Below, in pieces: positions 1 to 28,024 of a stretch of DNA of 64,000 nucleotides. Source of the stretch: a virus. Below the pieces are notes generated by a model. The model was not told where the DNA came from. It worked only from the letters and a program-made list of their open reading frames with translations, and searched no databases. A program made the position numbers and the translations under genes. Position 1 is the first letter of the stretch; the number at the start of each line of letters is the position of its first letter. The DNA lies in the IMG/VR virus record IMGVR_UViG_3300008954_003312, positions 1 to 64,000 of that record. The stretch is one strand, 5' to 3'.

Positions 1-375
1 GCTGGAGATAAAAAGGCTCTTGAGGCATACGAAAGCTGGATTAATAATTGCTGTCACAGCTTGCCCTCAATTCAGCATTTTTCTTGGTTTAATATAGGAA
101 GAAAGATTAGAACCTATAGAGACTATTGGTCAAATCACTGGCAAAGCTTATATAACATCAAACAAGAAGACATTGCAGAAAATAATATGTTTTTTGACAA
201 GCCGTGGGAAGAGGTCTCTGAAAAAGAAATTGATGACCTATCAGAAAAGCTTTCTTCAGAAATGGGAGGCTGGGTTTTTCATTCCAGGGTTGACTTTAAT
301 AATGTTACTCCTTATGTTGATGTTGAATTAGAAATACCTGAAGTAATGACAGACTGGGTCAAGGAGAAATCTTGA
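1..375 (+). CDS. C-terminal part of a gene starting before the window; possibly a glycosyltransferase
   Basis: Frame is open from base 1 (AGDKKALEAYESWINNCCHSLPSIQHFSWF...), so the 61 start is an artefact; sits at the head of the GT cluster; no diagnostic motif in the visible part. Confidence 0.4.
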   Translation, partial: AGDKKALEAYESWINNCCHSLPSIQHFSWFNIGRKIRTYRDYWSNHWQSLYNIKQEDIAENNMFFDKPWEEVSEKEIDDLSEKLSSEMGGWVFHSRVDFNNVTPYVDVELEIPEVMTDWVKEKS

Positions 376-1088
376 AAGTCGTCTTTATAGTTCCGTGCTT
401 TAATGCTGGTCCAAATCTAAGGACGCTTATAGATTCTATTTTGTGTCAAAATGATAAAAGATGGGAGTGTATTCTTATTGATGATTTGTCAGAAGATGAT
501 ACATCAAAAAAGATGAAAGAAGCCTGTAATTCAAATGATAAATTTAAATGTATTATTAATAAAGAAAAGAAATATGCTCTTAGAAATATAGTTGAAAATT
601 CTAGAAAGTTTCAAAATGATAGTGATACAGTTGTAGCTGTTATTGATGGTGATGATTCTCTTTGTAATCCAGACACAGTTAGTCTTTTAATAAGAGAATA
701 TGAGAAAGGATTAGATGTTGTCTGGACTGGTCATCGCTGGGATATTAACGGAATCAACATATCAAAAGAGATGCCAAATAATGTAAATCCATACTTTTGG
801 CCCTGGTCTTCTTCTCATTTAAGAACGTTTAGATCAAGCATGCTTTCTAATGTTCATGATGATAATTTTAAAAATATTCTTGGTGAATGGTTTAAGAGAG
901 GATATGATCAAGCCCTTATGCTTCCAGTTCTGTACTTAACAGAAAATAGAAAATATATTGATGAGATATGTTATCTTTATAATATAGATTCTTCGTCCAT
1001 ACCTGCTGATCAAAGAGAGTGGTCAGAGATGGAGCAGATATCAACAATCAATCTTGTTAGAGCAAGAGGGTTCATAGATAAAAAATGA
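372..1088 (+). CDS. GT2-family glycosyltransferase (GT-A fold)
   Basis: IVPCFNA, ILIDDLSED, DGDD (DxD) motifs; TTG start behind AAGGAG, overlapping the upstream stop. Confidence 0.9.
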   Translation: MKVVFIVPCFNAGPNLRTLIDSILCQNDKRWECILIDDLSEDDTSKKMKEACNSNDKFKCIINKEKKYALRNIVENSRKFQNDSDTVVAVIDGDDSLCNPDTVSLLIREYEKGLDVVWTGHRWDINGINISKEMPNNVNPYFWPWSSSHLRTFRSSMLSNVHDDNFKNILGEWFKRGYDQALMLPVLYLTENRKYIDEICYLYNIDSSSIPADQREWSEMEQISTINLVRARGFIDKK

Positions 1089-2086
1089 GTGTTTTAATAA
1101 CAGGTGTAGCGGGATTGATGGGCTCCAGGTTGGCAACTTGGATATTAGACAATACAGACTATGAAGTGATTGGAATTGATGATTTATCTGGAGGATATAT
1201 TGAAAATGTTGATGATAGGGTTAGGTTTTATAGACTAAATTTAATCAACCAGGTAGATGATATTTCTAATATATTTAAGTCCCATAACGTAGAAATAATA
1301 TATCATATGGCAGCATACGCTGCTGAGGGGCTTTCACCCTTTATAAGAAGTTTTAATTATAAGAATAATCTAGTTGCTTCTTCTAATTTAATAAATCAGG
1401 CTATTGAGAATGATATTAGTCGATTTGTTTTTACCAGTACTATGGCTGTCTATGGAGAAAAATATTCACCTCCGTTTGATGAATCTATGCTGCCATCTCC
1501 GATAGATCCGTATGGAATTGCAAAGTATGCTGTTGAACAAGACTTAGCTTGTGCACTTAGCCAGTTTGGCTTAGAATATACAATAATAAGGCCTCACAAT
1601 GTCTATGGAGTCAATCAGAATATCTGGGATAAGTATAGAAATGTCTTAGGTATCTGGATGTATCAGATACTGGAGGGTCAAAGACCGACAATATTTGGAG
1701 ACGGCGAGCAAAAGCGGGCATTTAGTTATATTGATGATTGCCTAGAACCATTGTGGAAGGCATCTCAGCTAGACCAATGTGTCGGAGAGATTATTAATCT
1801 TGGAGGCATAAAAGAGCACTCAATCAAAGATGCTTGTGATATTGTTATCAAGGCAACTGAAAGTGAAATTAAGCCTGCTTATCTTGAACCAAGACATGAA
1901 GTTAAAAATGCCTGGTCGACTTGGAAAAAATCCGTTGATATTTTGGACTTTAATCACACTATTGATCTCGAAGAGGGGGTTTCAAGAATGTGGAAATGGG
2001 CAAAGTCTCAGCCTAGAAGAAGTAGGTTTGTCTGGAGTGAATATGAGATTAATAAGGGAATATACACTTTTTGGAAGAACAAATGA
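1085..2086 (+). CDS. NAD-dependent NDP-sugar epimerase/dehydratase (GalE-like SDR)
   Basis: TGVAGLMG Rossmann motif, DDLSGG, YGIAK (YxxxK), RPHNVYG, GDGEQKR. Confidence 0.92.
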   Translation: MSVLITGVAGLMGSRLATWILDNTDYEVIGIDDLSGGYIENVDDRVRFYRLNLINQVDDISNIFKSHNVEIIYHMAAYAAEGLSPFIRSFNYKNNLVASSNLINQAIENDISRFVFTSTMAVYGEKYSPPFDESMLPSPIDPYGIAKYAVEQDLACALSQFGLEYTIIRPHNVYGVNQNIWDKYRNVLGIWMYQILEGQRPTIFGDGEQKRAFSYIDDCLEPLWKASQLDQCVGEIINLGGIKEHSIKDACDIVIKATESEIKPAYLEPRHEVKNAWSTWKKSVDILDFNHTIDLEEGVSRMWKWAKSQPRRSRFVWSEYEINKGIYTFWKNK

Positions 2087-2928
2087 TTGAAATAAAGACA
2101 GATGTTGGAGACTTTACAGTTGAAGCATTTTTAAAAGATGACATCAATAAGGATGCTATATCAATTGCCATGGTTACTCACCTTTCTCCGGAGATGACAA
2201 GAAACTCTGTTGCTTCTTTTAAAAAATTCTCTGAACATCCGATTGAGATTTATCTTGTTGATAATTTTTCTCCGCCTGATGTTGTTGAAGAGCTAAAGAA
2301 GATAGAAGGAATCAATTTAATACTAAATAGAGGTCAATTTAAATCAATACTAAATGGATATCCCGATAGTGTCCTTAACGGTGTGGGAATTGATATTGCA
2401 TCTAGATTCATAAAAACAAGATACATGTTTACTTGTCACAACGATGTCCTAGCCTACAAGAAGGGGTGGCTAACGTATCTTAAGTCAAAACTATCTGACA
2501 GCGTTGCAGGTGCAGCTTTCGGAGAAGATAACAGCAGAATTAAAGCATTGCACATATCTGGCTGCTTAATAGATCTAGAGCTTTATGAGGAAAATAGAAG
2601 AAACTGGTACCCAAACTGGAATTCAAAAAAAGAGATGCTTTGGGATGTTGGTGATCACTATACAAAATTTTTAAGAGATCAAGATTTTAGTTACTATGTG
2701 TGTGGAAATTCACATAATGATCCTAGTGTTTTAGAAAGAATCAATGATGAGCTAATTGAGAAGCACAAGATTCACGCTGATAAAGCAATCTCAGAGGAGG
2801 GTGATGTCTTATACCTTCACTTAGGAAGAGGAATTACTAAGTTTGCTGGAATCTATAATAAGCCAGGAAGAACAACCTATAAGGGCTGGATTGATTTTGG
2901 AAATGAATTATTAGACAGTGAAAAGTAG
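2083..2928 (+). CDS. GT2-like glycosyltransferase
   Basis: IYLVDNFS and CHND motifs, HLGRG near the C-terminus; ATG at 2083 forms an ATGA overlap with the upstream stop. Confidence 0.75.
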   Translation: MIEIKTDVGDFTVEAFLKDDINKDAISIAMVTHLSPEMTRNSVASFKKFSEHPIEIYLVDNFSPPDVVEELKKIEGINLILNRGQFKSILNGYPDSVLNGVGIDIASRFIKTRYMFTCHNDVLAYKKGWLTYLKSKLSDSVAGAAFGEDNSRIKALHISGCLIDLELYEENRRNWYPNWNSKKEMLWDVGDHYTKFLRDQDFSYYVCGNSHNDPSVLERINDELIEKHKIHADKAISEEGDVLYLHLGRGITKFAGIYNKPGRTTYKGWIDFGNELLDSEK

Positions 2929-2933
2929 ATAGA

Positions 2934-3710
2934 ATGAATTTAAATAATGTCGGATATCAGGAGTTTAAAAAGCTTTGTCAGAAAACACTTGATACACTTG
3001 GTGCTGATCAATCTCACCTTCCTTTCATGACTGGTATTTACTGGTCTGATATTTCAAAAAGAGATCCAGAAGATCCAGATCAACCCACTGGTAACGTGAT
3101 TACTACCTCTGAACCCTCTAAAGAAAATCCTGAACATACAGCCTTTTCTTCAGAGTATGATATAAATAAGTGTGAAAATTTACTTGACTTTGGATCTGGA
3201 ACTGGTACATGCAAGGATGAAAACGGTAATTCATTTCTTATGACTCTGTGTAAAAATTACTATAATCTAGATGCTGATCCTGATGCAAATTGTAATTTTA
3301 AAAGCTTAGAAGAGATACCTGATGATATAAAGTTCGATGCCATTGTTGCACATCACTGTCTTGAACATGTTGATAGAGATAGCATCCAGGGCCTTATGAA
3401 AACTCTATGCTCTAAATTGGACAGAAACGGAATTATAATGATAATAGTTCCAAATATTTTTAACTGGACATCTTACTCATTTAACCTAGATCATGTTCTA
3501 CCTCTTACAGTTGAGTCTATTGGAGCTTTTCTCTACATGAATGATGTTGAACCATTTAAAGCTTATCTTGCATGTAAGAGCCTCGATGAATATTTGAGAA
3601 TTATAGATCACTCTAATGATCCGGATATAGCAAAGATGATGGAGTTTTTAAATAATATCTACAGCATTCACCCTGCAAGCCAGCTAGTTGTTGCAGGCAT
3701 TAAAAGATAA
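2934..3710 (+). CDS. class I SAM-dependent methyltransferase
   Basis: LLDFGSGTG motif I, FDAIVAHHCLEHV, G.IMIIVPN. Confidence 0.85.
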   Translation: MNLNNVGYQEFKKLCQKTLDTLGADQSHLPFMTGIYWSDISKRDPEDPDQPTGNVITTSEPSKENPEHTAFSSEYDINKCENLLDFGSGTGTCKDENGNSFLMTLCKNYYNLDADPDANCNFKSLEEIPDDIKFDAIVAHHCLEHVDRDSIQGLMKTLCSKLDRNGIIMIIVPNIFNWTSYSFNLDHVLPLTVESIGAFLYMNDVEPFKAYLACKSLDEYLRIIDHSNDPDIAKMMEFLNNIYSIHPASQLVVAGIKR

Positions 3711-4615
3711 TGAAGATATTTTTTGACAATGTAAATTTTAATTCAAATTCAGGACCAAACGGATTTGGAAAAAAGCTTTTTAATTGTCTAGAGGGAAAAG
3801 GATATCAGGTCTTTGATACACCGATGAAGGCTATTTCTCCAGATATTCAGCTAAGCTTTATAGCATCAAATTTTAAACTAGCTCCCATAGTACAAAGACT
3901 TGATGGAATTTACTTTAACTCTGATCAAGACTTTAACTCTCTAAACGAACCAATTGAAAAAACCTATCAGGCAGCCAATGGTGTTATATTTCAGTCAGAA
4001 TTTAATAAGCTTCTAACAGAAAAATTCTTTGGGGTTAAGGAGAAGAGCTTTGTGATTCACAACGGAACCTGTCTCGAAGATGTTGAAAATATAGCGCCCC
4101 TGATTTCAAAGGATTTAGAAAGATTTAAAAACATCTGGACATGCGCTTCCTCATGGAGACCTCATAAGCGATTAAGTGAAAATGTAAGATATTTTTCAGA
4201 ACACTCTTCAGAAAATGACTGTCTTATTGTTGCAGGTGCAAATCCTGATTGCAAGCTTGATCATGATAGAGTTTTCTATGCAGGTGTTCTAGACTGGAAG
4301 ACGCTAGTATCTCTTTACAAGGTTTCAAAATACTTTATTCACCTTGCTTGGCTAGATCATTGTCCAAATGTTGTGGTTGATGCTAGGGCAGCTGGATGTC
4401 ATATAATATGCTCCTCTGCCGGTGGAACAAAAGAGATTGCAGGTAAAAATTCTACCATCATAGATGAAGATGATTGGGACTTTACGCCGGTTAGACTGTA
4501 TAATCCGCCTATCATGGATTTTTCTAAAAAAATATATGATGGAGAAGAATCAGATATTGATATTAAAAATACAGCAAATAGCTATCTAGAAGTTTTTACG
4601 GAGTGTCTTATATGA
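3710..4615 (+). CDS. GT4-family glycosyltransferase (GT-B)
   Basis: N-terminal SGPNGF loop, VIHNG, PHKR, DHCPNVVVDARAAG (D-x7-D version of E-x7-E), GGTKEI. Confidence 0.85.
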   Translation: MKIFFDNVNFNSNSGPNGFGKKLFNCLEGKGYQVFDTPMKAISPDIQLSFIASNFKLAPIVQRLDGIYFNSDQDFNSLNEPIEKTYQAANGVIFQSEFNKLLTEKFFGVKEKSFVIHNGTCLEDVENIAPLISKDLERFKNIWTCASSWRPHKRLSENVRYFSEHSSENDCLIVAGANPDCKLDHDRVFYAGVLDWKTLVSLYKVSKYFIHLAWLDHCPNVVVDARAAGCHIICSSAGGTKEIAGKNSTIIDEDDWDFTPVRLYNPPIMDFSKKIYDGEESDIDIKNTANSYLEVFTECLI

Positions 4616-5658
4616 GAGTCTTAGTCACAGGAGCAGGTGGATTAATTGGAAGTGAAGCAGTTAGATACTTTTTAAAAGATCATCTTGTCTGGGGTATTGA
4701 CAATGATATGAGGTCTACATTTTTTGGCAAAGAGGGTAGTGTTATTCCCACTATTGAGAAACTTAAGGTAGAAGATGGGTATACACACTTTCACGCTGAT
4801 ATCACTAGTGAAGACCAGATTGGTAGTATTTTTAAAAATATTAAGCCTGATGTCATAATTCACTGTGCTGCTCAGCCTAGTCATGATAAAGCTGCAGACA
4901 TACCTCTCTTGGACTTTAACGTGAATGCATTTGGAACTATTAATCTTCTGGAAGCAACTAGAAAGTTTTGCTCAAAAGATGCTGTTTTCATTCACATGAG
5001 CACTAATAAGGTCTATGGAGATGGACCAAATAATCTTGAAATTAGTGAGAGTGATGTTAGATATGACTTTGCTTCTATAGAGTTTTCAGAAGGAATCTCT
5101 GAGAGCTTTCAAATAGATCAATGCCTTCACTCTCTATTCGGAGCATCAAAGGTATCTGCTGACATAGTAGCACAGGAATATGGAAGATATTTTAATATGA
5201 ATGTTGGAATATTTAGAGGCGGCTGCTTAACTGGGCCCCAGCACGCAGGTGTGGAGCTTCACGGATTTTTATCATATATTGTCAAATGTGCGATAATTGG
5301 AAGGCCCTACACAGTCTTTGGGTACAAGGGAAAGCAAGTAAGAGATCAAATTCATAGCTACGATGTAATCCAGGCTTTTGAGAGATTTATTGAAAACCCA
5401 AGACAGGGAGCTGTCTACAATATAGGCGGCGGAAGAGAGAATAGTGCTTCAATTCTTGAGATAATACATTATCTGAAACACAATCATGGCTTAGAGTTAA
5501 ATTATTCAGTGTCAGATAAAAATAGATCAGGAGATCATATCTGTTATTATACTGATCTTAGCAAGCTAAAGTCTCACTTTCCCGACTGGTCAATAACAAT
5601 ATCTTTAAACAATATAATAGATGATATTATTTTTAATTCTAAGATAGAAAAGGAATGA
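4612..5658 (+). CDS. RfbE/CDP-tyvelose-epimerase-like NAD-dependent SDR (catalytic Tyr replaced by Phe)
   Basis: TGAGGLIG, AAQPSHD, STNKVYGD, HSLFGASK, GYKGKQVRD; ATGA overlap at 4612. Confidence 0.88.
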   Translation: MRVLVTGAGGLIGSEAVRYFLKDHLVWGIDNDMRSTFFGKEGSVIPTIEKLKVEDGYTHFHADITSEDQIGSIFKNIKPDVIIHCAAQPSHDKAADIPLLDFNVNAFGTINLLEATRKFCSKDAVFIHMSTNKVYGDGPNNLEISESDVRYDFASIEFSEGISESFQIDQCLHSLFGASKVSADIVAQEYGRYFNMNVGIFRGGCLTGPQHAGVELHGFLSYIVKCAIIGRPYTVFGYKGKQVRDQIHSYDVIQAFERFIENPRQGAVYNIGGGRENSASILEIIHYLKHNHGLELNYSVSDKNRSGDHICYYTDLSKLKSHFPDWSITISLNNIIDDIIFNSKIEKE

Positions 5659-5662
5659 GGTA

Positions 5663-6685
5663 ATGAATTTACCCAAGGTAACATTTGGAATAGTAAACTG
5701 TAATAGGCTTTTTTACTTTAAGAGCTGTTTAGAAAGCCTTCTGTACACAACAGAAGACTATGAAAACAAAGAGATAATAGTCGTAGATAATGCTTCAGTC
5801 GAAGAAGGGACAGAGGAATATCTTTCTGAACTTGAGGATCGAGGATTTAAGGTATTTAGACAAAAAGAGAGAGATCCTTCAAATGAATTTGCTAAAGCTT
5901 TGAATATAATCGTCAGAGAATCCACAGGTGATTTTATTTGCCCCCTACAGGGAGATATGCAATTTGTCTTGAAGGGAGCCTGGCTAAAGGGTTATGTTGA
6001 TTTTTATAGCAATAATAAGGATACTATAGGATGTATGCTCTTAGATGCACAAAGAAATGTAACCAATAATTCTCATTCTCCATTTAAACCTGTTAGCAAA
6101 GAGAGTGATAAATATAAATTTTTAATTGACATGAGAAGAAGTCCGATTATGTGCGCAGGAGATGTTCTTTTTAGTAGAGAGGTCCTCGAAAAAATAGCAC
6201 CATGGTCAGAAAATAATAAAAAGCACGAAGGTGGGCAGGATTCTGAGACAGACATGCTAAGTCGTGTTAGAGATGTTATGATTAGTGAAAATCTAAATTG
6301 GCACTGTGCTGTTCCGATTATTCCACCCTCTGTTGCAATTCAGACTGACCCAAGAGGGACAAATGCTCGAGTTAGAGGCAATAAGAGATACGGAAAGTAT
6401 TTTTCTCCAAAAGAAGGATTTCAATATTATGAAATTTTTAAATTTGATGATGTTGCCAATAAACATGATAATTCTTTCCCTATAGGAATTGAAGATATGG
6501 CAGTTTCAATTGGCTGGGAAGCACCGATAGATTCATCAGGAAACTGGAAGAAAAATCCGATAAATCCTGATAATTGTCATCCCTCAGACTACGTTGTTCT
6601 ATACGAAGAGGCTATTCTATCTCAACCTGATACTGTTGTCAATGAAGAAGATGCAGACTATATTAAAGACTGGCTGGAAGAATAG
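5663..6685 (+). CDS. GT2-family glycosyltransferase
   Basis: VTFGIVNCNR, IIVVDNAS, ALN...STGDFI, QGD. Confidence 0.85.
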   Translation: MNLPKVTFGIVNCNRLFYFKSCLESLLYTTEDYENKEIIVVDNASVEEGTEEYLSELEDRGFKVFRQKERDPSNEFAKALNIIVRESTGDFICPLQGDMQFVLKGAWLKGYVDFYSNNKDTIGCMLLDAQRNVTNNSHSPFKPVSKESDKYKFLIDMRRSPIMCAGDVLFSREVLEKIAPWSENNKKHEGGQDSETDMLSRVRDVMISENLNWHCAVPIIPPSVAIQTDPRGTNARVRGNKRYGKYFSPKEGFQYYEIFKFDDVANKHDNSFPIGIEDMAVSIGWEAPIDSSGNWKKNPINPDNCHPSDYVVLYEEAILSQPDTVVNEEDADYIKDWLEE

Positions 6686-7621
6686 ATGAAAGTATTTTGT
6701 CACATACCGAGAGAGAACTGGTTTTGTGATAGATATGGAAAAGAGTATCAGAAATTTTCTTCACACAGCGTTACTTTTAATGATCTAGATTCTGATTTAT
6801 ATTGGCTCTTAGCTGGGTGGTGTTGGAGGCATATTGATCCTAAGCTTTTATCATTAAAAAAAGTTGTTTGCACTATACATCACGAAGTTCCCTGGAAGTT
6901 TGACAATAATAGACTTTCTGAATTTATGGAAAGAGATAAGTTCGTTGATGCTTATCACGTTCCCTGTTTTCAGACAGAAGAGTTTATTAGAAAGATTACA
7001 AAAAAGCCAATTATTCAAATTTCTTATTGGGCTAATAACCACCTTTGGAAGGATCTGGACAGAGTTAGCTGTAAGAAAAAGTATGATGTCAGTGATAAGT
7101 TTGTCATATCTTCTTTTCAAAGAGATACTGAGGGAGGAGATTTAAAATCGCCCAAGCTTGAAAAAGGGCCAGATAGATTTTGTGACTTTGTTAAAAAGTT
7201 TTCAGAAATCTCTGATAAAGAGGTTCATGTTCTGCTAAACGGGTGGAGAAGACAGTATGTAATCTCTAGACTTGAAAGCGCTGGAATTGACTATAGCTAT
7301 TATGAGCTACCAGATTTTAATGAAATTGTGGAGATGTATAATGCAACTGACCTATATGTTGTAGGTTCCAGAGTTGAAGGAGGGCCTCAATCTATAATAG
7401 AATGTGCGCTAACAAAGACACCAATTATTTCAACTGATGTAGGAATAGCTAGAAATATATTACCTGAAAGCTGTATAATCAATATGGATTCTGAGTATGA
7501 TATTTTTGTTCCCGGTGATAATTGCGTTCAAGAGGCATATGAAAATGTTCAGAAAATATTAGTAGAGCCTCATGTTGAAAAGTATGACAAATTTTTTAAA
7601 AAAGTGCTAATGGAGCTATGA
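6686..7621 (+). CDS. GT4-family glycosyltransferase
   Basis: KLEKGPD, MYNATDLY, SRVEGGPQSIIE (E-x7-E), ISTDVG. Confidence 0.88.
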   Translation: MKVFCHIPRENWFCDRYGKEYQKFSSHSVTFNDLDSDLYWLLAGWCWRHIDPKLLSLKKVVCTIHHEVPWKFDNNRLSEFMERDKFVDAYHVPCFQTEEFIRKITKKPIIQISYWANNHLWKDLDRVSCKKKYDVSDKFVISSFQRDTEGGDLKSPKLEKGPDRFCDFVKKFSEISDKEVHVLLNGWRRQYVISRLESAGIDYSYYELPDFNEIVEMYNATDLYVVGSRVEGGPQSIIECALTKTPIISTDVGIARNILPESCIINMDSEYDIFVPGDNCVQEAYENVQKILVEPHVEKYDKFFKKVLMEL

Positions 7622-8682: not shown

Positions 8683-8684
8683 AA

Positions 8685-19748: not shown

Positions 19749-19750
19749 AT

Positions 19751-21001
19751 ATGAAACAAGAAGATCTCTGGGCTAACGCTTTATCACTTATGCCTCGCGG
19801 AACCCAGACAATGAGTAAGTGCCCAGATCAATTTGTTGACGGGGTTTATCCAAAATTTGCAGCCAGGGCTGAGGGTGCCTATATTTGGGATCATAAAGGT
19901 AATAAGTATTTAGACTTTATGTGCGGCCTCGGCCCAATTATACTAGGATATAATCACAAACCAACAAACAAGGCTGTAAGAGCTCAGCTAGAAAAGGGAA
20001 TTATATTTTCTTTACCGACAGTCCTTGAGCAAGAGCTTGCTAGTCTTATGGTTGAATCAATACCTTGTGCTGAGCAGGTCAGATTTGGAAAAAATGGAAC
20101 TGATGTTGATCTTGCTGCTGTTAGAATTGCTAGATCATACACTGGAAGAGAGCATATTGCCAAGTGCGGATATCACGGCTGGGGAGATTGGCATGCAATT
20201 AGCCTTAGATCGTATGGAGTCCCTAAGTCGCTAGGAGAAATAATTCATGAATTTGAATATAATAATCTCGAAAGCTTAGAGAGAGTATTAAAAAATCATG
20301 AGTGTGCTGCAGTTATAATGGAAGCTCAGGCCCTTACACCGCCAGATCCTGGTTTTCTTCAAGGAGTTAAGGATCTTTGCGGTTCATACGGCGCTCTTCT
20401 CATCTTTGATGAGGTTGTGACGGGTTTTAGATGGGATCTCGGAGGTGCTCAGTCTCACTATGGAGTAACACCTGACTTGGCATGTTTTGGAAAGGCAATG
20501 GCAAACGGATTACCAATATCAGCCATAGCTGGAAAGAGAGAGTTTATGAAAGAACTTGATCACATCTTCTTTTCAATGACATTTGGCGGTGAGTGTCTTT
20601 CACTTGCTGCTGCTATAGCAACTATTAAAGAACTTAAGAATAAAGACTATAGCCACATTTGGAATCTAGGAAGAAGGTTTGAAGAGGGAATGAACCTACT
20701 TTCAAGACAGTATGATCTTTCTATAAGCTTTTCAGGATCTGGACCAAGACATAATCTTACATTTTCAGAAGAATATAGAGATCCATCAGGAATGAAAGAT
20801 CTTTTTTATCAAGAAATGGTAAAGAGGGGCGTTTTGTTTTCTAATGTTCTTTATATAAGCTTTGCTCATACAAAGCTAGATATAGAATTTACACTAAACG
20901 CTGCTGAAGAATCTTTTAAAGTTGTTAAAGAAAATATCGATAATATTGACGCTGTTCTTGAAGGAAAGAGATCAGTTTCTGTTTTTAGGAAAAACACGTG
21001 A
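19751..21001 (+). CDS. class-III PLP aminotransferase (glutamate-semialdehyde aminomutase-like, sugar-locus subtype)
   Basis: QTMSK, GAYIWD.KGN.YLD, FGKNGTD, GYHGW, LIFDEVVTGFR, FGKAMANG (PLP lysine), TFGGE. Confidence 0.92.
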   Translation: MKQEDLWANALSLMPRGTQTMSKCPDQFVDGVYPKFAARAEGAYIWDHKGNKYLDFMCGLGPIILGYNHKPTNKAVRAQLEKGIIFSLPTVLEQELASLMVESIPCAEQVRFGKNGTDVDLAAVRIARSYTGREHIAKCGYHGWGDWHAISLRSYGVPKSLGEIIHEFEYNNLESLERVLKNHECAAVIMEAQALTPPDPGFLQGVKDLCGSYGALLIFDEVVTGFRWDLGGAQSHYGVTPDLACFGKAMANGLPISAIAGKREFMKELDHIFFSMTFGGECLSLAAAIATIKELKNKDYSHIWNLGRRFEEGMNLLSRQYDLSISFSGSGPRHNLTFSEEYRDPSGMKDLFYQEMVKRGVLFSNVLYISFAHTKLDIEFTLNAAEESFKVVKENIDNIDAVLEGKRSVSVFRKNT

Positions 21002-22023
21002 AATCATTTGTCATAGCTGAAGCAGGAGCTAATCACAATAGAGATTGGAAAATTGCCAAAAGCCTTATAAGAAGTGCAGCTAGATCAGGTTCAGATGCTG
21101 TAAAATTTCAAACATACACTTCAGAGACTCTTTACGCTAAAAATACACCTGACTTTGCAGGTTATAAAAATATTAATCAGCTAATAAAAGATATTGAGCT
21201 TCCTAGATCTTGGCAAAAAGACTTAAAGTTATTTTGTGATGATTGCGGAATAGAGTTTATGTCTACTCCCTTTGATGAAAAGGCTGTCGATGAGCTTTAT
21301 GACATCGGAGTTAAGCGATTTAAGATTTCCGGATTCGAAGCTACAGATCCAAGAATTGTTCAGCATGTTGCTAGAACTGGACTACCTATGATAATAACAA
21401 CCGGAATTAAGTGTGATATTTCTATGATGAAAAGTATTTTAGAATGGATCCAGGATGTTAATTCAGAACCAGACGTAACATTCCTGCATGGCAATCATGC
21501 CTATCCAACACCGATTTCACAGATATGTCTAGGACAGATAGGAGTTCTTAAAGATGCTTCTTTTTCTATTCCTGTTAAGATTGGAATTTCTGATCACACT
21601 AGGGGAATATTAATTCCACCTGTTGCTGTTTCTCTCGGCGCAGAAGTTGTTGAGAAACATTTTACTCTAGATAGAAATATGGAAGGCCCAGATCATCCAT
21701 TCGCTATAGAGCCCTTTGAGCTGTCTCTAATGGTTCAGAATATTAGATCAGTGGAAAAATCCATGGGTATTAGAGAAAATAAAGTTTCTGAGAGTGAATC
21801 TAGCTTTATTCATGCAACAAGATCAGTAGTAGCAAAAAGTCCACTAAAGAAAGGTGATCTGCTTTCAAGAGAAAATATAACAACAATGAGACCGTGGTTT
21901 GAAGACTCTATTCCAGCTTCAAGCTATCTAAAGATAATAAATGGAAATATTTTTATTCAGAAAGACATAGATGCTGGGACTATTTTAAAACTGTCTGATA
22001 TTTGTGAGAATAGAAATGGATAA
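20998..22023 (+). CDS. neuB: nonulosonic acid synthase, NeuB/PseI/LegI family with C-terminal SAF domain
   Basis: IAEAGANHN, AVKFQ, STPFD, KIS, YPT, SDHT, EKHFTLDR..GPDH, RSVVA...KKGD. Confidence 0.93.
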   Translation: MKSFVIAEAGANHNRDWKIAKSLIRSAARSGSDAVKFQTYTSETLYAKNTPDFAGYKNINQLIKDIELPRSWQKDLKLFCDDCGIEFMSTPFDEKAVDELYDIGVKRFKISGFEATDPRIVQHVARTGLPMIITTGIKCDISMMKSILEWIQDVNSEPDVTFLHGNHAYPTPISQICLGQIGVLKDASFSIPVKIGISDHTRGILIPPVAVSLGAEVVEKHFTLDRNMEGPDHPFAIEPFELSLMVQNIRSVEKSMGIRENKVSESESSFIHATRSVVAKSPLKKGDLLSRENITTMRPWFEDSIPASSYLKIINGNIFIQKDIDAGTILKLSDICENRNG

Positions 22024-22693
22024 ATGTGTATTTGCTTCTAAGGACAATGAATGGTCTAATGCTCTTTATGATCGTCTAATATCAAAAAATAAAGATATTT
22101 CTTGGATGAGAATCTCTAAAGAAGCAGATTTAAATGCTATTCATAGTTTTGATCCTGACTGGGTTTTCTTTTTTCACTGGTCCCAAATAGTTGACAAGGA
22201 TATTTGGGATAAACATCGATGTGTAGTTTTACATACATCAAACTTACCACATGGAAAAGGAGGAAGCCCAATACAGAACCAAATTTTAGATAATGTCATT
22301 CAAACTAAGGTCAATGCTATTGAAATGACTGATAAAGTAGATTCTGGAAAGATTTATTGTAATAGGCTGATTACTCTTCAAGGAACTTTAAGGGATATAT
22401 GGATGACTATAGCGATTCAGTCATATGGATTGATTATAAAATGCATAAAAGAAAATCCCAGACCTGAAGAACAAAAAAAAGAATCTGTCATAAAAACTTA
22501 CAAGAGAAGAAGAAGTAGCAATATTGATCTTAACTGTACTTTAAATCAAGCTTATAATCAAATTAGAATGCTTGACGGTGAGGGATATCCAAGATCAAAT
22601 ATAAAGATGGGAAATTTTATTATAGAGTTTTCTAGAGCTGGATTTGATAATAGTGGTAATCTAATTTGTGATGCAAGATTTAAAAAAGTATAA
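22016..22693 (+). CDS. N10-formyl-THF-dependent formyltransferase (sugar N-formyltransferase, Fmt-like)
   Basis: FFFHWS, HTSNLP.GKGGSP.QNQI, VDSGKIY, IRMLDGEGYP. Confidence 0.85.
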   Translation: MDKCVFASKDNEWSNALYDRLISKNKDISWMRISKEADLNAIHSFDPDWVFFFHWSQIVDKDIWDKHRCVVLHTSNLPHGKGGSPIQNQILDNVIQTKVNAIEMTDKVDSGKIYCNRLITLQGTLRDIWMTIAIQSYGLIIKCIKENPRPEEQKKESVIKTYKRRRSSNIDLNCTLNQAYNQIRMLDGEGYPRSNIKMGNFIIEFSRAGFDNSGNLICDARFKKV

Positions 22694-23342
22694 AAATGTC
22701 TTAGTCCTGGCAGCGCATCCTGATGACGAGACGCTGGGGTGTGGAGGCACTATTTCAAAACTTTCATCCCTGGGCTCTATAGTTAGGCTTTTAACATTTA
22801 CTGACGGGATAAGCGCAAGAGAGCCCGGTCAGAGAGTTTCTCATCTTTCTCAAGTTTCTCAAAGATTGGGAATATTTCAATATAAGTCTTTTGATTTTCC
22901 TGATAATAAGATGGATTCCATACCCATTTTAGATGTTGTAAAGAAAATAGAAAAATACATGGATGATGAATCTTTTAGGCCTGATTTAGTTCTAACACAT
23001 TCTCCGTTTTGCTTGAACATTGATCATAAAGTTGTATATAATGCAACTATAACTGTATTTAGAGGTTTAGATATTTTTAGCCCTATAAAGATTATGTCCT
23101 ATGAAGTTCCATCTTCTTCTGAGTGGAACTCACTTTCTAGCTTTGTTCCAAATTGCTATATTGACATCAAGTCTCAGCTAGAAGATAAGCTTGAAGCACT
23201 TTCTTTTTATAAAGATGAAATGAGAAATCATCCTCACCCTAGGTCATTTGAGAATATTAAAAGGCTTGCATCTGTCTATGGATCTCAATGTGGATTAGAG
23301 CTAGCTGAAAGATTTATGATTATTAGAGAGGTAATTAAGTGA
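22671..23342 (+). CDS. PIG-L/LmbE-family N-acetylsugar deacetylase
   Basis: AAHPDDETLGCGG, TDG, FPDNKMD, NIDH, YEVPSS.EW, HPRS, AERF. Confidence 0.9.
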   Translation: MQDLKKYKNVLVLAAHPDDETLGCGGTISKLSSLGSIVRLLTFTDGISAREPGQRVSHLSQVSQRLGIFQYKSFDFPDNKMDSIPILDVVKKIEKYMDDESFRPDLVLTHSPFCLNIDHKVVYNATITVFRGLDIFSPIKIMSYEVPSSSEWNSLSSFVPNCYIDIKSQLEDKLEALSFYKDEMRNHPHPRSFENIKRLASVYGSQCGLELAERFMIIREVIK

Positions 23343-23872
23343 TTAAGGGAGAAAAATGTTTTCTTACAGCAGTTAATCCAGATTCAATAGAGACTTTAAG
23401 GAACTGGAGAAACAATCCTAAGCTAAGAAGATACTTTAGGGAATTTAGAGAGATTAGCAAGCCTATGCAGGAATCCTGGTATAGAGATAGAGTTCTAAAC
23501 AATCCAAATCAATTTGATTTTGAAATACGAGATAAAGAAACAGGAAGCCTAATCGGACATTGTGGTCTTTATTACGTTAACTGGGTTAGTCGATCAGCAG
23601 AGTTTACTATATACATTGGTGACTTTAGCTTTAGGGGACAGGGAATAGGAAGTGATGCGCTTAGATCACTAATAAGATATGGATTTGATGATTTAAACCT
23701 TAATAGGATATGGTGCGAGGTTTATTCTAACAATGATGCTATTCACATTTATGAAAAAATTGGATTTATTAAAGAGGGTGTTATGAGAGATCAGTACTAT
23801 AGTGAAGGAAAGTATTGGGATAGTACAATCTTATCAATGCTTAGCAGTGATTGGAAAAAAGAGCTTTCTTAG
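23339..23872 (+). CDS. RimJ/RimL-type GNAT N-acetyltransferase, PseH-like
   Basis: WRN.P, RGQGIG (acetyl-CoA loop), YGF..LNLNRI..EV...N..AI..YEKIGF..EG. Confidence 0.88.
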   Translation: MIKGEKCFLTAVNPDSIETLRNWRNNPKLRRYFREFREISKPMQESWYRDRVLNNPNQFDFEIRDKETGSLIGHCGLYYVNWVSRSAEFTIYIGDFSFRGQGIGSDALRSLIRYGFDDLNLNRIWCEVYSNNDAIHIYEKIGFIKEGVMRDQYYSEGKYWDSTILSMLSSDWKKELS

Positions 23873-23881: not shown

Positions 23882-24748
23882 ATGAGTTTTAAATATAATA
23901 TAGGAATTATTGGAAATGGATTTGTGGGATCATCGATCACTGCTGGATTTGGCTTACATGCAAATATAAAGATATATGATAAGAATCCATCTAAGTCTAT
24001 GAATTCAATTGAAGACACAGTAAATAATTCTGATTTCATATTTGTATCAGTTCCGACTCCCATGAGAAATGTAACAGGTGGAAAGATTGATTTATTGATA
24101 ATGGATTCTGTTTTTGAGGAGATAAGCAGAGTTAATAAAAGAGATGATAATATCTTTATAGTTAAGTCTACTGTTGTTCCTGGGACTGTTGAAAGATATG
24201 TTGAGATGTATCCGAAAATGAATATTATATTTAGTCCTGAATTCTTAACGGAAAGAGCAGCTAGACTTGACTTTATTAATACAGCTAGAATAGTCCTAGG
24301 GGGAGACATGGCGCTTCTCGATAGGGCTGAGAGTTTATTTAGAGAAAGATTTCCTCACACTAAGATTATAAAAACAGATCTTGCCACAGCGCAATTTATA
24401 AAGTACATGGCGAACTGTTTCTTCTCAGTTAAGCTTTCTTTTATGAATGAGATGCTTCAAGCTGCAGAGGCATTTCAAGTAGACTGGGCTAGAGCGATTG
24501 AGGGATTTATTACAGACGGCAGAATTGGAAATTCGCATATTGACATTCCGGGACATGATGGATCGAGAGGTTTCGGTGGCAAATGCTTTCCAAAAGATCT
24601 TAATGCATTTATTGGCTTTTTTGAAGATGTGGGTGTTGATCCTACGGTTATGAAAGCTGCCTGGAGAAAAAATTTGGAAGTTAGAGATGATCACGACTGG
24701 GCTACAATAGAGGGCGCTGTAAGTGAAAATACTAAAGAAGGAGACTAG
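23882..24748 (+). CDS. short UDP-glucose/GDP-mannose 6-dehydrogenase-family protein
   Basis: GNGFVG, VPTP, KSTVVPGT, SPEFL, KYMAN, GFGGKCFPKD; ends before the usual C-terminal domain. Confidence 0.88.
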   Translation: MSFKYNIGIIGNGFVGSSITAGFGLHANIKIYDKNPSKSMNSIEDTVNNSDFIFVSVPTPMRNVTGGKIDLLIMDSVFEEISRVNKRDDNIFIVKSTVVPGTVERYVEMYPKMNIIFSPEFLTERAARLDFINTARIVLGGDMALLDRAESLFRERFPHTKIIKTDLATAQFIKYMANCFFSVKLSFMNEMLQAAEAFQVDWARAIEGFITDGRIGNSHIDIPGHDGSRGFGGKCFPKDLNAFIGFFEDVGVDPTVMKAAWRKNLEVRDDHDWATIEGAVSENTKEGD

Positions 24749-24753: not shown

Positions 24754-25554
24754 ATGAATAATTTTCCAACTGGAAAGCCTCACATTTCTTTTTCTGAGAT
24801 AAAACAGTGGAAGGAATGCCCGTGGAGGCACAAGCTTTTGTATATTGATAAGATTGATCTATTTGAACCCTCACCCCATCTTGACTATGGGACTAGCGTT
24901 CACAATGCCTGTGAAAGCTATTTAAAGACTGGTCAGATGATAACTGAATCAGCAGAAATAGAAATTCGAGAAGCATTTGAAAAAAATGGAAAAACATGGT
25001 ATGAACAAGGTCATCCTCATGTTGACACCTGGGTAGATTGGGCCAAGGTTAGCCTTGATGCTCTCCCAGCATATTTTGATGAGATGTTCGGAGATTGGCA
25101 AGCAGTCGAGGCTGAAGAGTATCTTTATGAAGAGATCGAGGGTAAAGAGATAAAGTTTAAAGGTTTTATTGATGCCATTATTAAAACTAAGAACAAAAAA
25201 GGAAAAGAAATCTATTGGATTCTTGACTATAAGACAGCACCTAAATATGGCTGGCGTCGAGAGAAAAAGCAGAGCATTCTTATGACAGCCCAGTTAATTC
25301 TATATAAGCACTTTTGGGCTAGAAAGCACTCTGTGGCCCTCGAAGACATTCGATGCGGTTTTATATTAATGAAGAGAGGAAGTAAGCCAGAGAAGTCCTG
25401 TGAGCTTGTAGCAGTATCTGTGGGACCAAAGACACTAGAGCGAGGAATAAAAATGATGAATAACATGATATATTCTGTTAAGACAAGAATGTTTCTAAAA
25501 AATAGAGATTCTTGTAAGTGGTGTCAGTATAAGAATACTAATCATTGTACTTGA
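24754..25554 (+). CDS. PD-(D/E)XK exonuclease, Cas4/AddB-like with four-Cys Fe-S staple
   Basis: ISFS......CP, GT.VH, E, GFID, ILDYKT, QL..Y, terminal CKWCQY....HC. Confidence 0.88.
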   Translation: MNNFPTGKPHISFSEIKQWKECPWRHKLLYIDKIDLFEPSPHLDYGTSVHNACESYLKTGQMITESAEIEIREAFEKNGKTWYEQGHPHVDTWVDWAKVSLDALPAYFDEMFGDWQAVEAEEYLYEEIEGKEIKFKGFIDAIIKTKNKKGKEIYWILDYKTAPKYGWRREKKQSILMTAQLILYKHFWARKHSVALEDIRCGFILMKRGSKPEKSCELVAVSVGPKTLERGIKMMNNMIYSVKTRMFLKNRDSCKWCQYKNTNHCT

Positions 25555-25599: not shown

Positions 25600-26844
25600 A
25601 TGGAAAAGAAAAAGGTTTTAATTCTATCTGATCATGCTCTTTCAACATCAGGTGTTGGAACTCAGACAAGACATTTAGTCTCAGGGCTATTAGAAAAAGA
25701 ATTTTGGACTTTTAGACAGTTTGGAGCTGCATTAAAGCATTCAGACTATAGAACTGTTGTTGTTAATGATGATTTTATAATTAAGCCCATTGACGGATTT
25801 GGAAATAGAGATCTAATAAGGATTACTCTTGCTACAGAGAGGCCTGAAATTCTTTTTATATTTACTGATCCAAGATTCTTTATTTGGCTTTTTGAAATGG
25901 AGGACGAAGTTCATCAGGTATGTCCCGTTGCTTGGTGGCATGTCTGGGACAATCTTCCCTATCCTAATTACAATCAGGAGCTTTATGACTCAACTGATCT
26001 AATAAATTGTCATTCATATCTAACATATCAGATGTGCAATGATCATTTTTCTGAAAAGACAAACTTTATTCCACATTCAATTCCAGAAAATATATTTTTT
26101 CCGCTACCAGATGTTCAAAAGAAACAGTTTAAAGAACAGATACTTGGAAAAGATAGAGTAGATCATTTCGTTGGTATCTGGGTAAATAGAAATGCAAAAA
26201 GAAAAAGACCCAGTGATGTCATCGAGTCCTGGAAGATATTTTTAGATGACATTGAAAAGAAGCACGGTCATAGAAATGCAACACTTATAATGCATACAGA
26301 CCCACAGGATCCAGAAGGCCCAAATCTTTTTATGGTTACAGAGCTATTTGGAGTTCAGAATAACATATTCTTTTCAAAGGAAAGACTTGACTTTGACAAG
26401 ATGAATATTCTTTACAATATTTCAGATTTTTGTCTAAATGTAAGCTACGCTGAGGGATTCGGGCTTACTACACTAGAAGCTATGCAGTCTGGAATACCAA
26501 TAGTTGCTGCCAAGACTGGTGGGCTGACTAGGCAAGTCGTTGATCATAGGGATGGTTCAGAAAATGGAATTGCTCTTGATATAGAGTTGCAAACACTAGT
26601 AGGATCTCAGCAGGTTCCATACATCTATGAAGATTATGTTTCTTGTCAGTCTATTGCAAATGGAATACAGTCGCTTTATGAAATGCCTGAAAAAAAGAAA
26701 AAGAAGCTAGGAGAGAAAGCAAGAAACTATGTTCTCTCTGAGTTTGCATATCAGGATACAGTTGATAAGTGGCACAGTACCATGAAAGATCTTGTTGAAA
26801 ATTGGAAAGATGAATACAAGAGCTGGGAATGCATAGAGATTTAA
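25600..26844 (+). CDS. GT4-family glycosyltransferase
   Basis: LSDH...TSGVG, IPHS, NRN.KRKR, EGFGLTTLEAMQSGIP, TGGL; AGGAG RBS. Confidence 0.92.
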   Translation: MEKKKVLILSDHALSTSGVGTQTRHLVSGLLEKEFWTFRQFGAALKHSDYRTVVVNDDFIIKPIDGFGNRDLIRITLATERPEILFIFTDPRFFIWLFEMEDEVHQVCPVAWWHVWDNLPYPNYNQELYDSTDLINCHSYLTYQMCNDHFSEKTNFIPHSIPENIFFPLPDVQKKQFKEQILGKDRVDHFVGIWVNRNAKRKRPSDVIESWKIFLDDIEKKHGHRNATLIMHTDPQDPEGPNLFMVTELFGVQNNIFFSKERLDFDKMNILYNISDFCLNVSYAEGFGLTTLEAMQSGIPIVAAKTGGLTRQVVDHRDGSENGIALDIELQTLVGSQQVPYIYEDYVSCQSIANGIQSLYEMPEKKKKKLGEKARNYVLSEFAYQDTVDKWHSTMKDLVENWKDEYKSWECIEI

Positions 26845-26860
26845 TTTGGAGATATGATAA

Positions 26861-28024
26861 TTGATTAAGGTTTTATTAAGAGCACCCGTTTTAACTGTAA
26901 GCGGCTATGGAATTCACTCAAGACAGGTTTTTAAGTGGCTAGAGTCTAGAAAGAATGTAGACTTGTATGTCCAGCCGTTAAACTGGGGAAATACAACGTG
27001 GCTTATTAATCCAGACATAGAAGATGGTCTAGTGAGTAGAATAATGGAAAAGTCAAGAGAGCACAATGGAAAGTATGACATCTCTTTCCAAGTCCAGCTC
27101 CCAGATGAGTGGGACACCTCTCTAGCTAAAAAGAATGTTGGAATTTCTGCTTTTGTTGAGACAGATAGATGTAATCCAAAATGGATAGATTCAATTAATA
27201 GCATGGATGCTGTTATTGTGCCAACAACACACACAAGAGATATTATTAAAAACACTGGATCTACAAGAACACCTATACATGTAATTCCCGAGTCTTATTT
27301 GGATAAAATAGATGACAGTGAAATTTTACCACTTGACCTTCCTATAAAGACAGATTTTAACTTTTTAGTTGTTGGTCAGTTTACTGGAAATGATCCGTGG
27401 AATGATAGAAAAAATATTTTTTATACAATTAAATGGTTTTGCGAAGCGTTTAGAGATGATCCTGATGTAGGCTTGATAGTAAAATCTAATCACGGCAGGA
27501 GTACAAGAATCGATAGAAGGATAACAAAATCTGCACTAAAGGGGATATTAGATGAAGTAAGGATCGGTCCATTTCCAAGAGTCCATCTTCTACATGGTCT
27601 AATGAGTGAAGAGGACATGACTGGTCTATATAGAAGAGACGATGTTAAGTGTCTTATAAGTTTGACAAGAGGAGAGGGATTTGGACTCCCGATGCTAGAA
27701 GCAGCTGCCTCTGGGATTCCTGTAATTGCAACTAACTGGTCAGGTCATTTAGACTTTCTTGGTCTTGGAAAGTTCTTACCTATAAACTATTCTCTTGGTG
27801 AGATACCGGAAAATAAGCCCGATGATAGAATATTTTTTAAGGGAATGAGATGGGCACAGCCCAGTGAGGAAGATTTTAAGAAAAAGGTCGTTAAATTCAG
27901 ACAAAAGCCCAGTCTTCCTACTAAGTGGGCAGATGATCTATCTAAAAAGATCAAGAATAAGTTCTCTATCAGTGAAATCTGTAGAGAATATGATAGGTTT
28001 CTACATCGGGAATTTAACATATGA
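26861..28024 (+). CDS. GT4-family glycosyltransferase
   Basis: APV.TVSGYG.HSR, ET, RKN, RGEGFGLPMLEAAASG.PVIAT.WSGH.DF; TTG start. Confidence 0.92.
   Translation: MIKVLLRAPVLTVSGYGIHSRQVFKWLESRKNVDLYVQPLNWGNTTWLINPDIEDGLVSRIMEKSREHNGKYDISFQVQLPDEWDTSLAKKNVGISAFVETDRCNPKWIDSINSMDAVIVPTTHTRDIIKNTGSTRTPIHVIPESYLDKIDDSEILPLDLPIKTDFNFLVVGQFTGNDPWNDRKNIFYTIKWFCEAFRDDPDVGLIVKSNHGRSTRIDRRITKSALKGILDEVRIGPFPRVHLLHGLMSEEDMTGLYRRDDVKCLISLTRGEGFGLPMLEAAASGIPVIATNWSGHLDFLGLGKFLPINYSLGEIPENKPDDRIFFKGMRWAQPSEEDFKKKVVKFRQKPSLPTKWADDLSKKIKNKFSISEICREYDRFLHREFNI

Follow-up and report, generated by a model that had tools for sequence, protein, structure and literature searches.

A putative phage-encoded cytoplasmic glycosylation system beside the baseplate genes of a marine T4-related phage, with tail proteins as its candidate target

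What would a tailed phage make with 28 kb of glycan-related genes that run directly into its baseplate genes, and to what would the product be attached? The question is raised by positions 1-28024 of IMG/VR virus record IMGVR_UViG_3300008954_003312, a single linear virus contig of 76,234 bp with no terminal overlap, the first 64,000 bases of which are referred to here as the window. A first-pass annotation had proposed that this phage attaches a glycan of its own making to its particles or to its DNA. We favour the particle, giving it about an even chance, and disfavour DNA. Judged from its genes, the locus may represent a phage-encoded, wholly cytoplasmic glycosylation system, the likeliest target of which would be the outer baseplate and fibre proteins of the phage itself; we place this reading midway between doubt and acceptance.

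The candidate attachment site is the tripeptide [S/T]-G-S. The baseplate and fibre block (28327-57829) contains 54 of these tripeptides, where per-protein shuffles predict 16.6 (z 9.4), and 0 of 300 shuffles reached that count. The corresponding counts for other groups of proteins were:

Island enzymes: 5 observed, 5.2 expected
Head proteins: 4 observed, 4.2 expected
Replication proteins: 1 observed, 1.0 expected

The head proteins show no excess; tail, baseplate and fibres, and not the capsid, form the likely target. An unbiased scan of tripeptides ranked TGS first (28 against 6.3 expected) and SGS third; the permuted triplets STG, GST, GSS and SSG occurred at about 1x expectation and the residues flanking the motif were unrelated. 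The sites are encoded by 40 different 9-mers, which therefore points to selection at the protein level. Other candidate motifs, namely G-S-P, D-S-[A/D] and the Bacteroidota sequon D-[ST]-[AILVMT], were all at expectation here, and no Ser/Thr-rich linkers or tails were found on the virion proteins. The [S/T]-G-S sites are concentrated in six proteins, encoded from 33750, 35298, 39922, 42719, 53776 and 55052, and none is present in the products of gp6, gp25 and the gene at 29432. The baseplate wedge and motif-rich genes are:

31386-31880, + strand, gp25-like baseplate wedge protein, no [S/T]-G-S (PDB profile match at E 3e-9 to contractile-system gp25-like proteins)
31882-33741, + strand, gp6-like baseplate wedge protein, no [S/T]-G-S (PHROG 6, E 2e-18; PF04865, Baseplate_J)
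33750-35288, + strand, multi-domain Ig/FN3-like protein, candidate acceptor with 6 [S/T]-G-S against 1.0 expected (AlphaFold2 (AF2) pLDDT 80.5; Foldseek matches to chains of beta-sandwich domains)
35298-39032, + strand, virion protein of 1244 amino acids (aa) with a ConA-like lectin domain (PF13385), candidate acceptor with 12 [S/T]-G-S against 2.3 expected
39922-43687, + strand, two motif-rich tail-region proteins, 917 aa with 9 sites and 322 aa with 3 sites (no family match)
53776-57829, + strand, two motif-rich proteins, 421 aa with 5 sites and 925 aa with a ConA-like domain and 13 sites (partial homologs of 53776 in the baseplate/fibre block of phage immuto)

Related loci, 80 of them, were gathered using gp6, and those with gp6 at least 44% identical are called the near clade. 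The records named below include G001 (an IMG/VR contig of 38.8 kb), L192 (a metagenome contig of 60.9 kb), G002 (a relative of 236 kb) and G006 (the complete 200-kb genome of a relative). The nearest cultured relatives are the phages immuto (vB_FspM_immuto, NC_055915) and Mel-JY01 (PP395634), with portal proteins 40-42%, gp6 32% and two GT4-family glycosyltransferases 31-33% identical to those of this phage. Across all 45 related loci [S/T]-G-S is enriched about 5x, with values of 4.6x for immuto and 7.4x for Mel-JY01. In the two outgroups the enrichment is 0.83x (T4, gp7-12/wac/gp34-37) and 1.3x (cyanophage P-RSM4), and neither of them matched the better conserved of the two GT4 enzymes, called GT4-25600 after its start position; T4 and P-RSM4 are the only negatives in this comparison of motif and enzyme. 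The 46 orthologs of the 33750 protein carry 3-9 sites each where about one is expected, and these sites are spread over 41 alignment columns, four of which are shared by more than half of the 46 sequences. A density that is kept while positions shift is expected of a modification site under selection and less of a fixed structural turn, and hence the turnover seen in these alignments suggests the former, though it is not proof. The AF2 model of the 33750 protein is a chain of Ig/FN3-like domains, and domains of this kind are typically exposed.

The genes that would supply the glycan lie immediately upstream. The run of about 30 packed, co-oriented genes described at first pass holds: 1-28024 contains 31 open reading frames (ORFs), all on the + strand and overlapping or no more than 45 nt apart. 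Against the at least 8 glycosyltransferases (GTs) counted there, 7 exceed the curated Pfam cut-offs (GT2 at 372 and 5663; GT4/GT1-fold at 3710, 6686, 10642, 25600 and 26861) and weaker candidates bring the number up to 10 (a sub-cut-off GT2 at 2071, the GT2-domain C-terminus at 1-375 and a GT-B-like lead at 14034). Sugar-nucleotide and tailoring enzymes are borne out by Pfam and NCBIfam profiles, which identify about 20 sugar-modifying enzymes, and the sole non-sugar gene in the run is the PD-(D/E)XK nuclease at 24754. The genes, with SAM standing for S-adenosylmethionine and Kdo for 3-deoxy-D-manno-octulosonate, are as follows.

1-375, + strand, C-terminal 124 aa of a conserved protein of ~647 aa with a GT2 domain, truncated at the contig end; it is the conserved flank on the left of the cassette (full-length homologs 52-57% identical in G002, G003, L036 and L192; Pfam GT2 domain at homolog residues ~333-447)
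372-1088, + strand, GT2 glycosyltransferase (PF00535, 68 bits; 62% identical in G002)
1085-2086, + strand, SDR NDP-sugar epimerase/dehydratase (PF01370, 146 bits)
2071-2928, + strand, weak GT2-like protein (PF00535, 20.8 bits, cut-off 23.3)
2934-3710, + strand, SAM methyltransferase (PF13489)
3710-4615, + strand, GT4/GT1-fold glycosyltransferase (PF00534, PF13692)
4603-5658, + strand, SDR epimerase/dehydratase (PF01370)
5663-6685, + strand, GT2 glycosyltransferase (PF00535, 61 bits)
6686-7621, + strand, GT4/GT1-fold glycosyltransferase (PF13692, PF00534)
7618-8682, + strand, SDR epimerase/dehydratase (PF01370, PF16363)
8664-10313, + strand, O-carbamoyltransferase (PF16861, 210 bits; PF02543)
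10310-10639, + strand, cupin, sugar isomerase/epimerase-like (PF01050, PF07883)
10642-11553, + strand, GT4/GT1-fold glycosyltransferase (PF00534)
11540-12271, + strand, DUF2334 protein, polysaccharide-deacetylase-like (PF10096)
12258-13445, + strand, PhyH-type Fe/2-oxoglutarate dioxygenase (PF05721)
13447-14085, + strand, SAM methyltransferase (PF13489)
14034-15134, + strand, protein with no Pfam match, possibly GT-B-like, a lead only (nearest Atlas clusters viral and unnamed; weak Glyphos_transf lead)
15153-16169, + strand, PseB-like UDP-GlcNAc 4,6-dehydratase (PF02719, 300 bits; TIGR03589 PseB 366 bits, cut-off 408)
16105-17223, + strand, radical-SAM/SPASM enzyme (PF04055, PF13186)
17230-18240, + strand, sulfotransferase-like protein, a lead only (unmatched in Pfam and NCBIfam; Atlas 0.96 to Sulfotransfer_2 clusters, with a structural TM of 0.53)
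18233-18937, + strand, CMP-sugar (nonulosonate/Kdo-type) cytidylyltransferase (PF02348, CTP_transf_3, 62 bits; weak KdsB-type NCBIfam matches)
18927-19748, + strand, GFO/IDH/MocA oxidoreductase (PF01408)
19751-21001, + strand, class-III (GSA-aminomutase-like) aminotransferase (PF00202, 162 bits; NF004856, 357 bits)
20998-22023, + strand, nonulosonic-acid synthase, NeuB/PseI-like (PF03102, 225 bits; NeuB 275 and PseI 239 (cut-off 340), both sub-cut-off)
22004-22693, + strand, formyltransferase (PF21553, PF00551)
22668-23342, + strand, PIG-L/LmbE-type de-N-acetylase (PF02585)
23339-23872, + strand, PseH-like GNAT N-acetyltransferase (PF13302; TIGR03585 79 bits, cut-off 93)
23882-24748, + strand, short UDP-sugar-dehydrogenase-like protein, semi-conserved right end of the cassette (PF00984, PF03721; in 13 related loci at 37-89% identity)
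24754-25554, + strand, PD-(D/E)XK (Cas4/RecB-like) nuclease, conserved right flank (PF12705; synteny kept in 19 loci and Flavobacterium phage immuto)
25600-26844, + strand, lineage-core GT4 glycosyltransferase, GT4-25600 (PF00534, 54 bits)
26861-28024, + strand, second lineage-core GT4 (PF00534, PHROG 2170; syntenic in 20/20 near-clade loci; 33% identical in immuto)
28021-28317, + strand, conserved protein of 98 aa, hydrophobic in a single N-terminal segment (residues 7-25, hydropathy 3.07; homologs in 24 loci)

On Pfam and NCBIfam matches, the block 15153-23872 is a putative, divergent pseudaminic-like nonulosonic-acid route. The PseB, PseH and PseI models all match it below their curated cut-offs (366 against 408, 79 against 93 and 239 against 340 bits), and neither a DegT-type PseC nor a PseG was recognisable there with these profiles. 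A nonulosonic-acid synthase and a CMP-activating enzyme are both encoded in the island (PF03102, 225 bits; CTP_transf_3, 62 bits). The PseB-like gene was uninformative as to host or donor, its best genome matches being scattered over Pelagibacter, Peregrinibacteria and Kiritimatiellales at only 47% identity.

Comparison with relatives reveals that the 28 kb is not a single unit, being composed of a conserved GT core and a hypervariable cassette. The cassette is bounded by the large GT2 protein on the left and by the nuclease-GT4-GT4 genes on the right, few of its genes are common to different relatives, and its size varies as follows.

L036: 0.05 kb
G003: 13.4 kb
G002: 22.7 kb
This window: 24.4 kb

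The right flank, in the order nuclease, GT4, GT4, 98-aa protein, three conserved genes, gp25 and gp6, is kept in 20/20 near-clade loci with enough flanking sequence, and the GT genes abut the virion genes, with the stop of the second core GT4 (28024) overlapping the next gene of the baseplate block. At a finer scale, a single-gene indel lies at window 5671/5675, after the SDR gene at 4603: L192 (15304-16170) and G001 (4907-5776) carry a 288-aa DUF268/Methyltransf_11 methyltransferase that is missing here, in genomes that are about 90% identical.

GT4-25600 is the best-conserved gene of the block (60-71% identity against 44-60% for gp6), on par with the capsid protein and terminase. It is full-length in five genomes of a distant clade (E 1e-114 to 1e-125), at 19-33 kb from gp6, and among cultured phages it is found in immuto, Mel-JY01 and RM378 only, besides one uncultured phage of 484 kb. 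The cultured carriers infect Flavobacterium, Microcystis and Rhodothermus, and conservation across phages of such different hosts argues for an acceptor of GT4-25600 that is phage-encoded and not a host glycan. In metagenomes the family comprises more than 4157 clusters, and a metagenomic contig of 106,479 bp encodes an identical GT4. The AF2 model (pLDDT 84) is a generic retaining GT-B fold with MshA, chlorovirus B736L and BshA as nearest PDB entries, and the best PDB sequence match is B736L of chlorovirus NY-2A (E 3e-11; 16% identity in the structural alignment).

The nearest solved GT4 enzymes bear on an explanation that we regard as quite unlikely, in which glycan genes and motif are unrelated: the product of the island would be a different glycoconjugate, either cytoplasmic or released (a host protein in modified form, a glycan serving as decoy or store, or a small glycoside), and the motif would be structural. 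MshA and BshA do glycosylate small molecules, the 33750 model has one site of its six within a beta-strand, and the motif is present whatever the size of the cassette, even in the cassette-less L036 (4.2x); L036, however, retains the conserved GT2 and the GT4 pair. Nor does this explanation account well for positions that turn over while density is kept, for flanks that are unrelated in at least six different proteins, or for GT genes packed against virion genes on both sides.

Would a glycan made here have to leave the cytoplasm? At first pass no multi-pass membrane protein had been seen, and a Kyte-Doolittle scan of every ORF of at least 40 aa on the 76-kb contig agrees, as none is encoded by a real gene. 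A single strong hydrophobic segment is present on the contig, in the 98-aa protein at 28021. The start of this gene overlaps the stop of the second core GT4 and the two are translationally coupled; the small protein might act in membrane anchoring, as a signal-like segment or as a factor in assembly. By hydropathy, no real multi-pass ORF is present in or near the islands of G002 (236 kb), G003 (176 kb) and L192. Wzx (PF01943) gave no match over cut-off in ten records (G000 and G002-G010, including the complete 200-kb genome), Wzy_C (PF04932) none in G000 and G002-G005, and the initiating transferases (Bac_transf, PF02397; WecA-type, PF00953) none over cut-off in G000 and G002-G005 and none in Pfam scans of the window ORFs from 1 to 57829. 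Exporter genes just upstream, which could have overturned the first-pass proposal, are absent from the 9.6 kb left of the island in L192.

These searches bear on the main rival explanation, remodelling of the host cell surface, which we consider unlikely. Phage enzymes would here build or alter a lipid-linked glycan (lipopolysaccharide (LPS), capsule or protein O-glycan) exported by the priming enzyme, flippase and ligase of the host, and the purpose would be, for example, to block superinfection or to prevent progeny from sticking to debris. The enzyme families are indeed the same as those of O-antigen and capsule loci, for which hypervariable cassettes with conserved flanks are typical, and surface remodelling is the published reading for the cyanophages S-SCSM2R, S-SCSM1 and P-SSM2 (PMC12801897). 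It is nevertheless at odds with the lack of any initiating transferase, flippase, polymerase or multi-pass protein among those sought in the island, its flanks and the related records, and with a core GT4 that is highly conserved over phages whose hosts belong to different phyla and differ in surface glycans; it also leaves the tail-confined excess of the motif unexplained.

DNA hypermodification, in which some or all of the GTs would glycosylate modified bases against restriction and the neighbouring PD-(D/E)XK nuclease would act on unmodified DNA, appears very improbable to us. The conserved nuclease-GT4-GT4 order would suit it, both GT4s partially match Pfam GT4-conflict (PF20706), and phage GTs are known to add varied glycans to DNA (Pyle et al. 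2024, as cited in PMC12619734). DNA is disfavoured as a target because nine relatives (G002-G010, the complete G006 among them) yielded no thymidylate-synthase-family hydroxymethylase (PF00303), in a search that did not extend to the unseen part of the genome of this phage. Moreover, nonulosonic-acid, carbamoyl and sulfate chemistry together with 7-10 GTs exceed the needs of any known DNA glycan, and the protein motif would be left without explanation.

If tail proteins are the target, the system might operate as follows. Its conserved core would consist of the ~647-aa GT2-domain protein on the left and the nuclease with two GT4 genes on the right, abutting the baseplate operon, and the cassette between them would provide GTs, nucleotide-sugar enzymes and tailoring enzymes for a nonulosonic-acid route and for carbamoyl, methyl, formyl, acetyl and probably sulfate transfer. 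Late in infection the conserved GTs would start the glycan, adding its initial sugars to the Ser or Thr of scattered [S/T]-G-S sites in folded or folding tail proteins, GT4-25600 either priming or extending on a phage-encoded acceptor. Cassette enzymes would then extend and decorate the glycan from UDP-, GDP- and CMP-sugar precursors of the host, and the outcome would be a strain-specific virion coat, a viral counterpart of the O-antigen serotype. The gene content, the two-tier architecture, the lack of export genes within the reach of the data and the pairing of core GT4 with a tail-protein motif throughout the lineage are shown; in this scheme the motif as attachment site, the priming enzyme, the timing and the biological role are inferred. 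A broader formulation, which we hold tentatively and would sooner doubt than accept, is that an abundant, world-wide aquatic lineage of T4-related phages possesses its own sequon-directed protein O-glycosylation, in which GT4/GT2 enzymes prime [S/T]-G-S and a cassette of up to ~24 kb gives a strain-specific nonulosonate/carbamoyl/methyl/formyl/sulfate glycan and thereby virion 'serotypes'.

Several points weigh against glycosylation of the tail. The motif and the GT4 pair co-occur across one lineage, where they are inseparable from shared ancestry, and the motif might represent a structural turn confined to tail proteins of this lineage. A phylogenetic-profile test of motif against GT4 fails within the lineage, as the distant clade has the GT4 too, 19-33 kb from gp6. 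The core GT4 has a generic fold that gives no clue to the acceptor, and no recognised protein O-glycosyltransferase family (Maf/PF01973, GT41 or PglL type) is present; for Maf, no window ORF gave a match at E 0.01, and the ORFs at 14034 and 17230 point elsewhere. Export machinery of the host could in principle be used, and an exporter may be encoded elsewhere, as all related records but G006 are incomplete and the present record covers, by the CheckV estimate, 15% of the genome of this phage. Finally, no RNA run is among the listed public runs that contain the stretch.

How does the putative system compare with those already described? Virion O-glycosylation is known in the mycobacteriophages Che8, Corndog and Myrna (Freeman et al. 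2023 Cell Host Microbe, as cited in PMC12619734 and PMC12801897). The likeness of the putative system here lies in soluble phage GTs in or beside the structural operon, which would glycosylate virion proteins in the cytoplasm without export machinery. The mycobacteriophage systems have one to few GTs and no sugar-nucleotide pathways, with glycans on the C-termini of capsid and tail-tube subunits, whereas the present phage has 7-10 GTs, about 20 pathway and tailoring enzymes, a hypervariable cassette and dispersed candidate [S/T]-G-S sites on baseplate and fibre proteins. Autonomous glycosylation by giant viruses, as for the Vp54 N-glycans of chloroviruses and the fibril glycans of Mimivirus (PMC9614988), likewise involves cytoplasmic virus GTs with nucleotide-sugar and tailoring (methyl, acetyl) enzymes in clusters that vary by strain. 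The hosts of giant viruses, however, are eukaryotic, the targets are capsid or fibril proteins, and the likeness of the core GT4 is only at the level of the GT4 family; chlorovirus B736L itself has no known acceptor (PMC9614988).

Among marine myoviruses, the cyanophages P-SSM2, S-SCSM1 and S-SCSM2R have a dozen or more GTs, epimerases and clustered Kdo/nonulosonate-type genes of putative function (PMC12801897); in S-SCSM2R there are 13 GTs and 22 genes in glycan clusters, read as host-surface modification (PMC12801897). With such clusters already described (PMC12801897), any statement that the scale here is well beyond anything known has to be tempered. These cyanophages differ in belonging to the Kyanoviridae, the core GT4 has no match in any cyanomyovirus record, and P-RSM4 shows no excess of the motif. 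In bacterial flagellin islands, pseudaminic or legionaminic acid is transferred in a Maf-dependent manner, as in Campylobacter, Aeromonas and Clostridium (PMC9298399, PMC13317340). A soluble nonulosonic-acid pathway (PseB-, PseH-, PseI- and CMP-transferase-like) beside hypervariable tailoring genes is common to both, and in flagellin islands an exposed protein polymer is decorated before leaving the cell. The present locus differs in that no Maf is detectable, a class-III aminotransferase replaces PseC, no PseG is recognisable and the Pse models match below cut-off. Closer to this phage, immuto and Mel-JY01 have smaller genomes (160-190 kb); in immuto the order nuclease-GT-GT is followed by a glycan island of ~11 kb, which thus lies after the GT pair instead of before it and away from the baseplate genes. 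All members of the moraphages are reported to have heat-shock DnaK/DnaJ genes and several core GT orthogroups (PMC12619734); no HSP70 (DnaK) was found in G002-G005, which are 36-70% complete and have the core GTs.

Virion glycosylation of mycobacteriophages with few GTs, autonomous virion glycosylation by giant viruses and glycan clusters of marine cyanophages are therefore already known. Our literature search found nothing on the system of this lineage, on a phage-encoded nonulosonate route of this kind or on the motif, and nothing on glycosylated virions of marine phages. Should the virion indeed bear the glycan, oceanic tailed phages would wear a variable sugar coat of cellular complexity, which would bear on adsorption to hosts and marine particles, on survival against proteases and grazers, and on recognition of phages by hosts. 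It would also change the reading of viral 'auxiliary metabolic' sugar genes in metagenomes, which are usually filed as host LPS modification. A short, defined acceptor motif served by soluble enzymes would, if true, be a tool for cytoplasmic glyco-engineering. Metagenomes abound in members of the core GT4 family, and the two cultured relatives make the idea directly testable.

Is the locus genuine? A chimeric join of host and phage DNA can be dismissed, as two independent contigs are colinear with it: G001 over window 767-38701 at 88-92% and L192 over window 4-10219 at 91-96% nucleotide identity. G001 and L192 are different genomes, so that the island-baseplate junction is independently confirmed; across 24-31 kb the support comes from the colinear contigs G001 and L002. 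The architecture is common to more than 20 relatives, including the 20/20 near-clade loci, and to the cultured immuto. Read depth over window 1-20000 is even and low, and the Logan contig of the likely source run also starts at window position 1, while another, of 15,262 nt, spans 10187 to ~25448. In two metagenome runs, contig depth rises 5-10 fold at window 1335-2001, within the conserved SDR epimerase gene, which presumably reflects recruitment of homologs from other organisms and not a change in copy number.

The left edge of the island is the contig (assembly) end. Three assemblies of this phage or close kin break within ~800 bases of one another inside the 647-aa GT2 gene (at window 1, at the start of G001, which corresponds to window 767, and in the Logan contig); the cause could be microdiversity or a leftward repeat. 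That the locus continues off this edge, as had been proposed, is true of one more sugar gene, the 647-aa GT2 protein seen whole in L192, and the island does not extend far beyond it. L192 reaches 9.6 kb further left than the window, and the genes met before the 647-aa GT2 protein encode, in leftward order, a 1298-aa fibre-like protein, a 127-aa protein, PhoH/PIN, UvdE and an uncharacterised protein, none with a hydrophobic segment. The 1298-aa protein (L192:4113-8009) is rich in Ala, Gly, Thr and Ser, has no family match and shows patches of homology to fibre-region proteins of G002; it contains 9 [S/T]-G-S against 3.6 expected. As it adjoins the island on the left, the island of L192 is bordered by virion-type genes on both sides. 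The UvdE UV-damage endonuclease gene (L192:887-1855; Pfam, 187 bits) lies upstream of PhoH. In G002 the large GT2 protein is preceded by PhoH/PIN, a nucleotidyltransferase and a PrkA-SpoVR-DUF444 trio (26353-30813), homologs of the bacterial YeaG-YeaH-YcgB stress module.

With regard to the source, CheckV rates this record 15% complete and relatives of 136-236 kb 40-70% complete, which points to a jumbo phage. The phage is uncultured and T4-related, and the public sequencing runs containing the stretch are marine metagenomes. By portal identity the closest cultured phages are Microcystis phage Mel-JY01 (42%), Flavobacterium phage immuto (40%) and Rhodothermus phage RM378 (33%), and megablast of 24 kb gave no nucleotide-level match among the 50,697 phage records of INPHARED. 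The T4-type terminase noticed at first pass was confirmed; the large terminase, portal, prohead protease and major capsid protein lie at contig 63303-74061.

Downstream of the island, the passage into gp25-like and gp6-like baseplate genes stands, unlike the 'sigma' and 'gp5' assigned at first pass to 28327 and 29432. Neither has Pfam, PHROG or PDB-profile support, and their homologs in the cultured relatives are hypothetical proteins. The product of 28327-29058 is a basic protein of 243 aa (net +14), well conserved, restricted to this lineage and with no detectable family; it is possibly a late transcription factor. The T4 late promoter TATAAATA, matched 5 times where 7.3 were expected, gave no signal. 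Outside the window, a galactose-3-O-sulfotransferase-like gene (PHROG 3347, E 1e-11) lies directly 3' of the major capsid gene at contig 74131-75045, a position at which it is not found in G002 or G003; together with the ORF at 17230, it hints at sulfated glycans.

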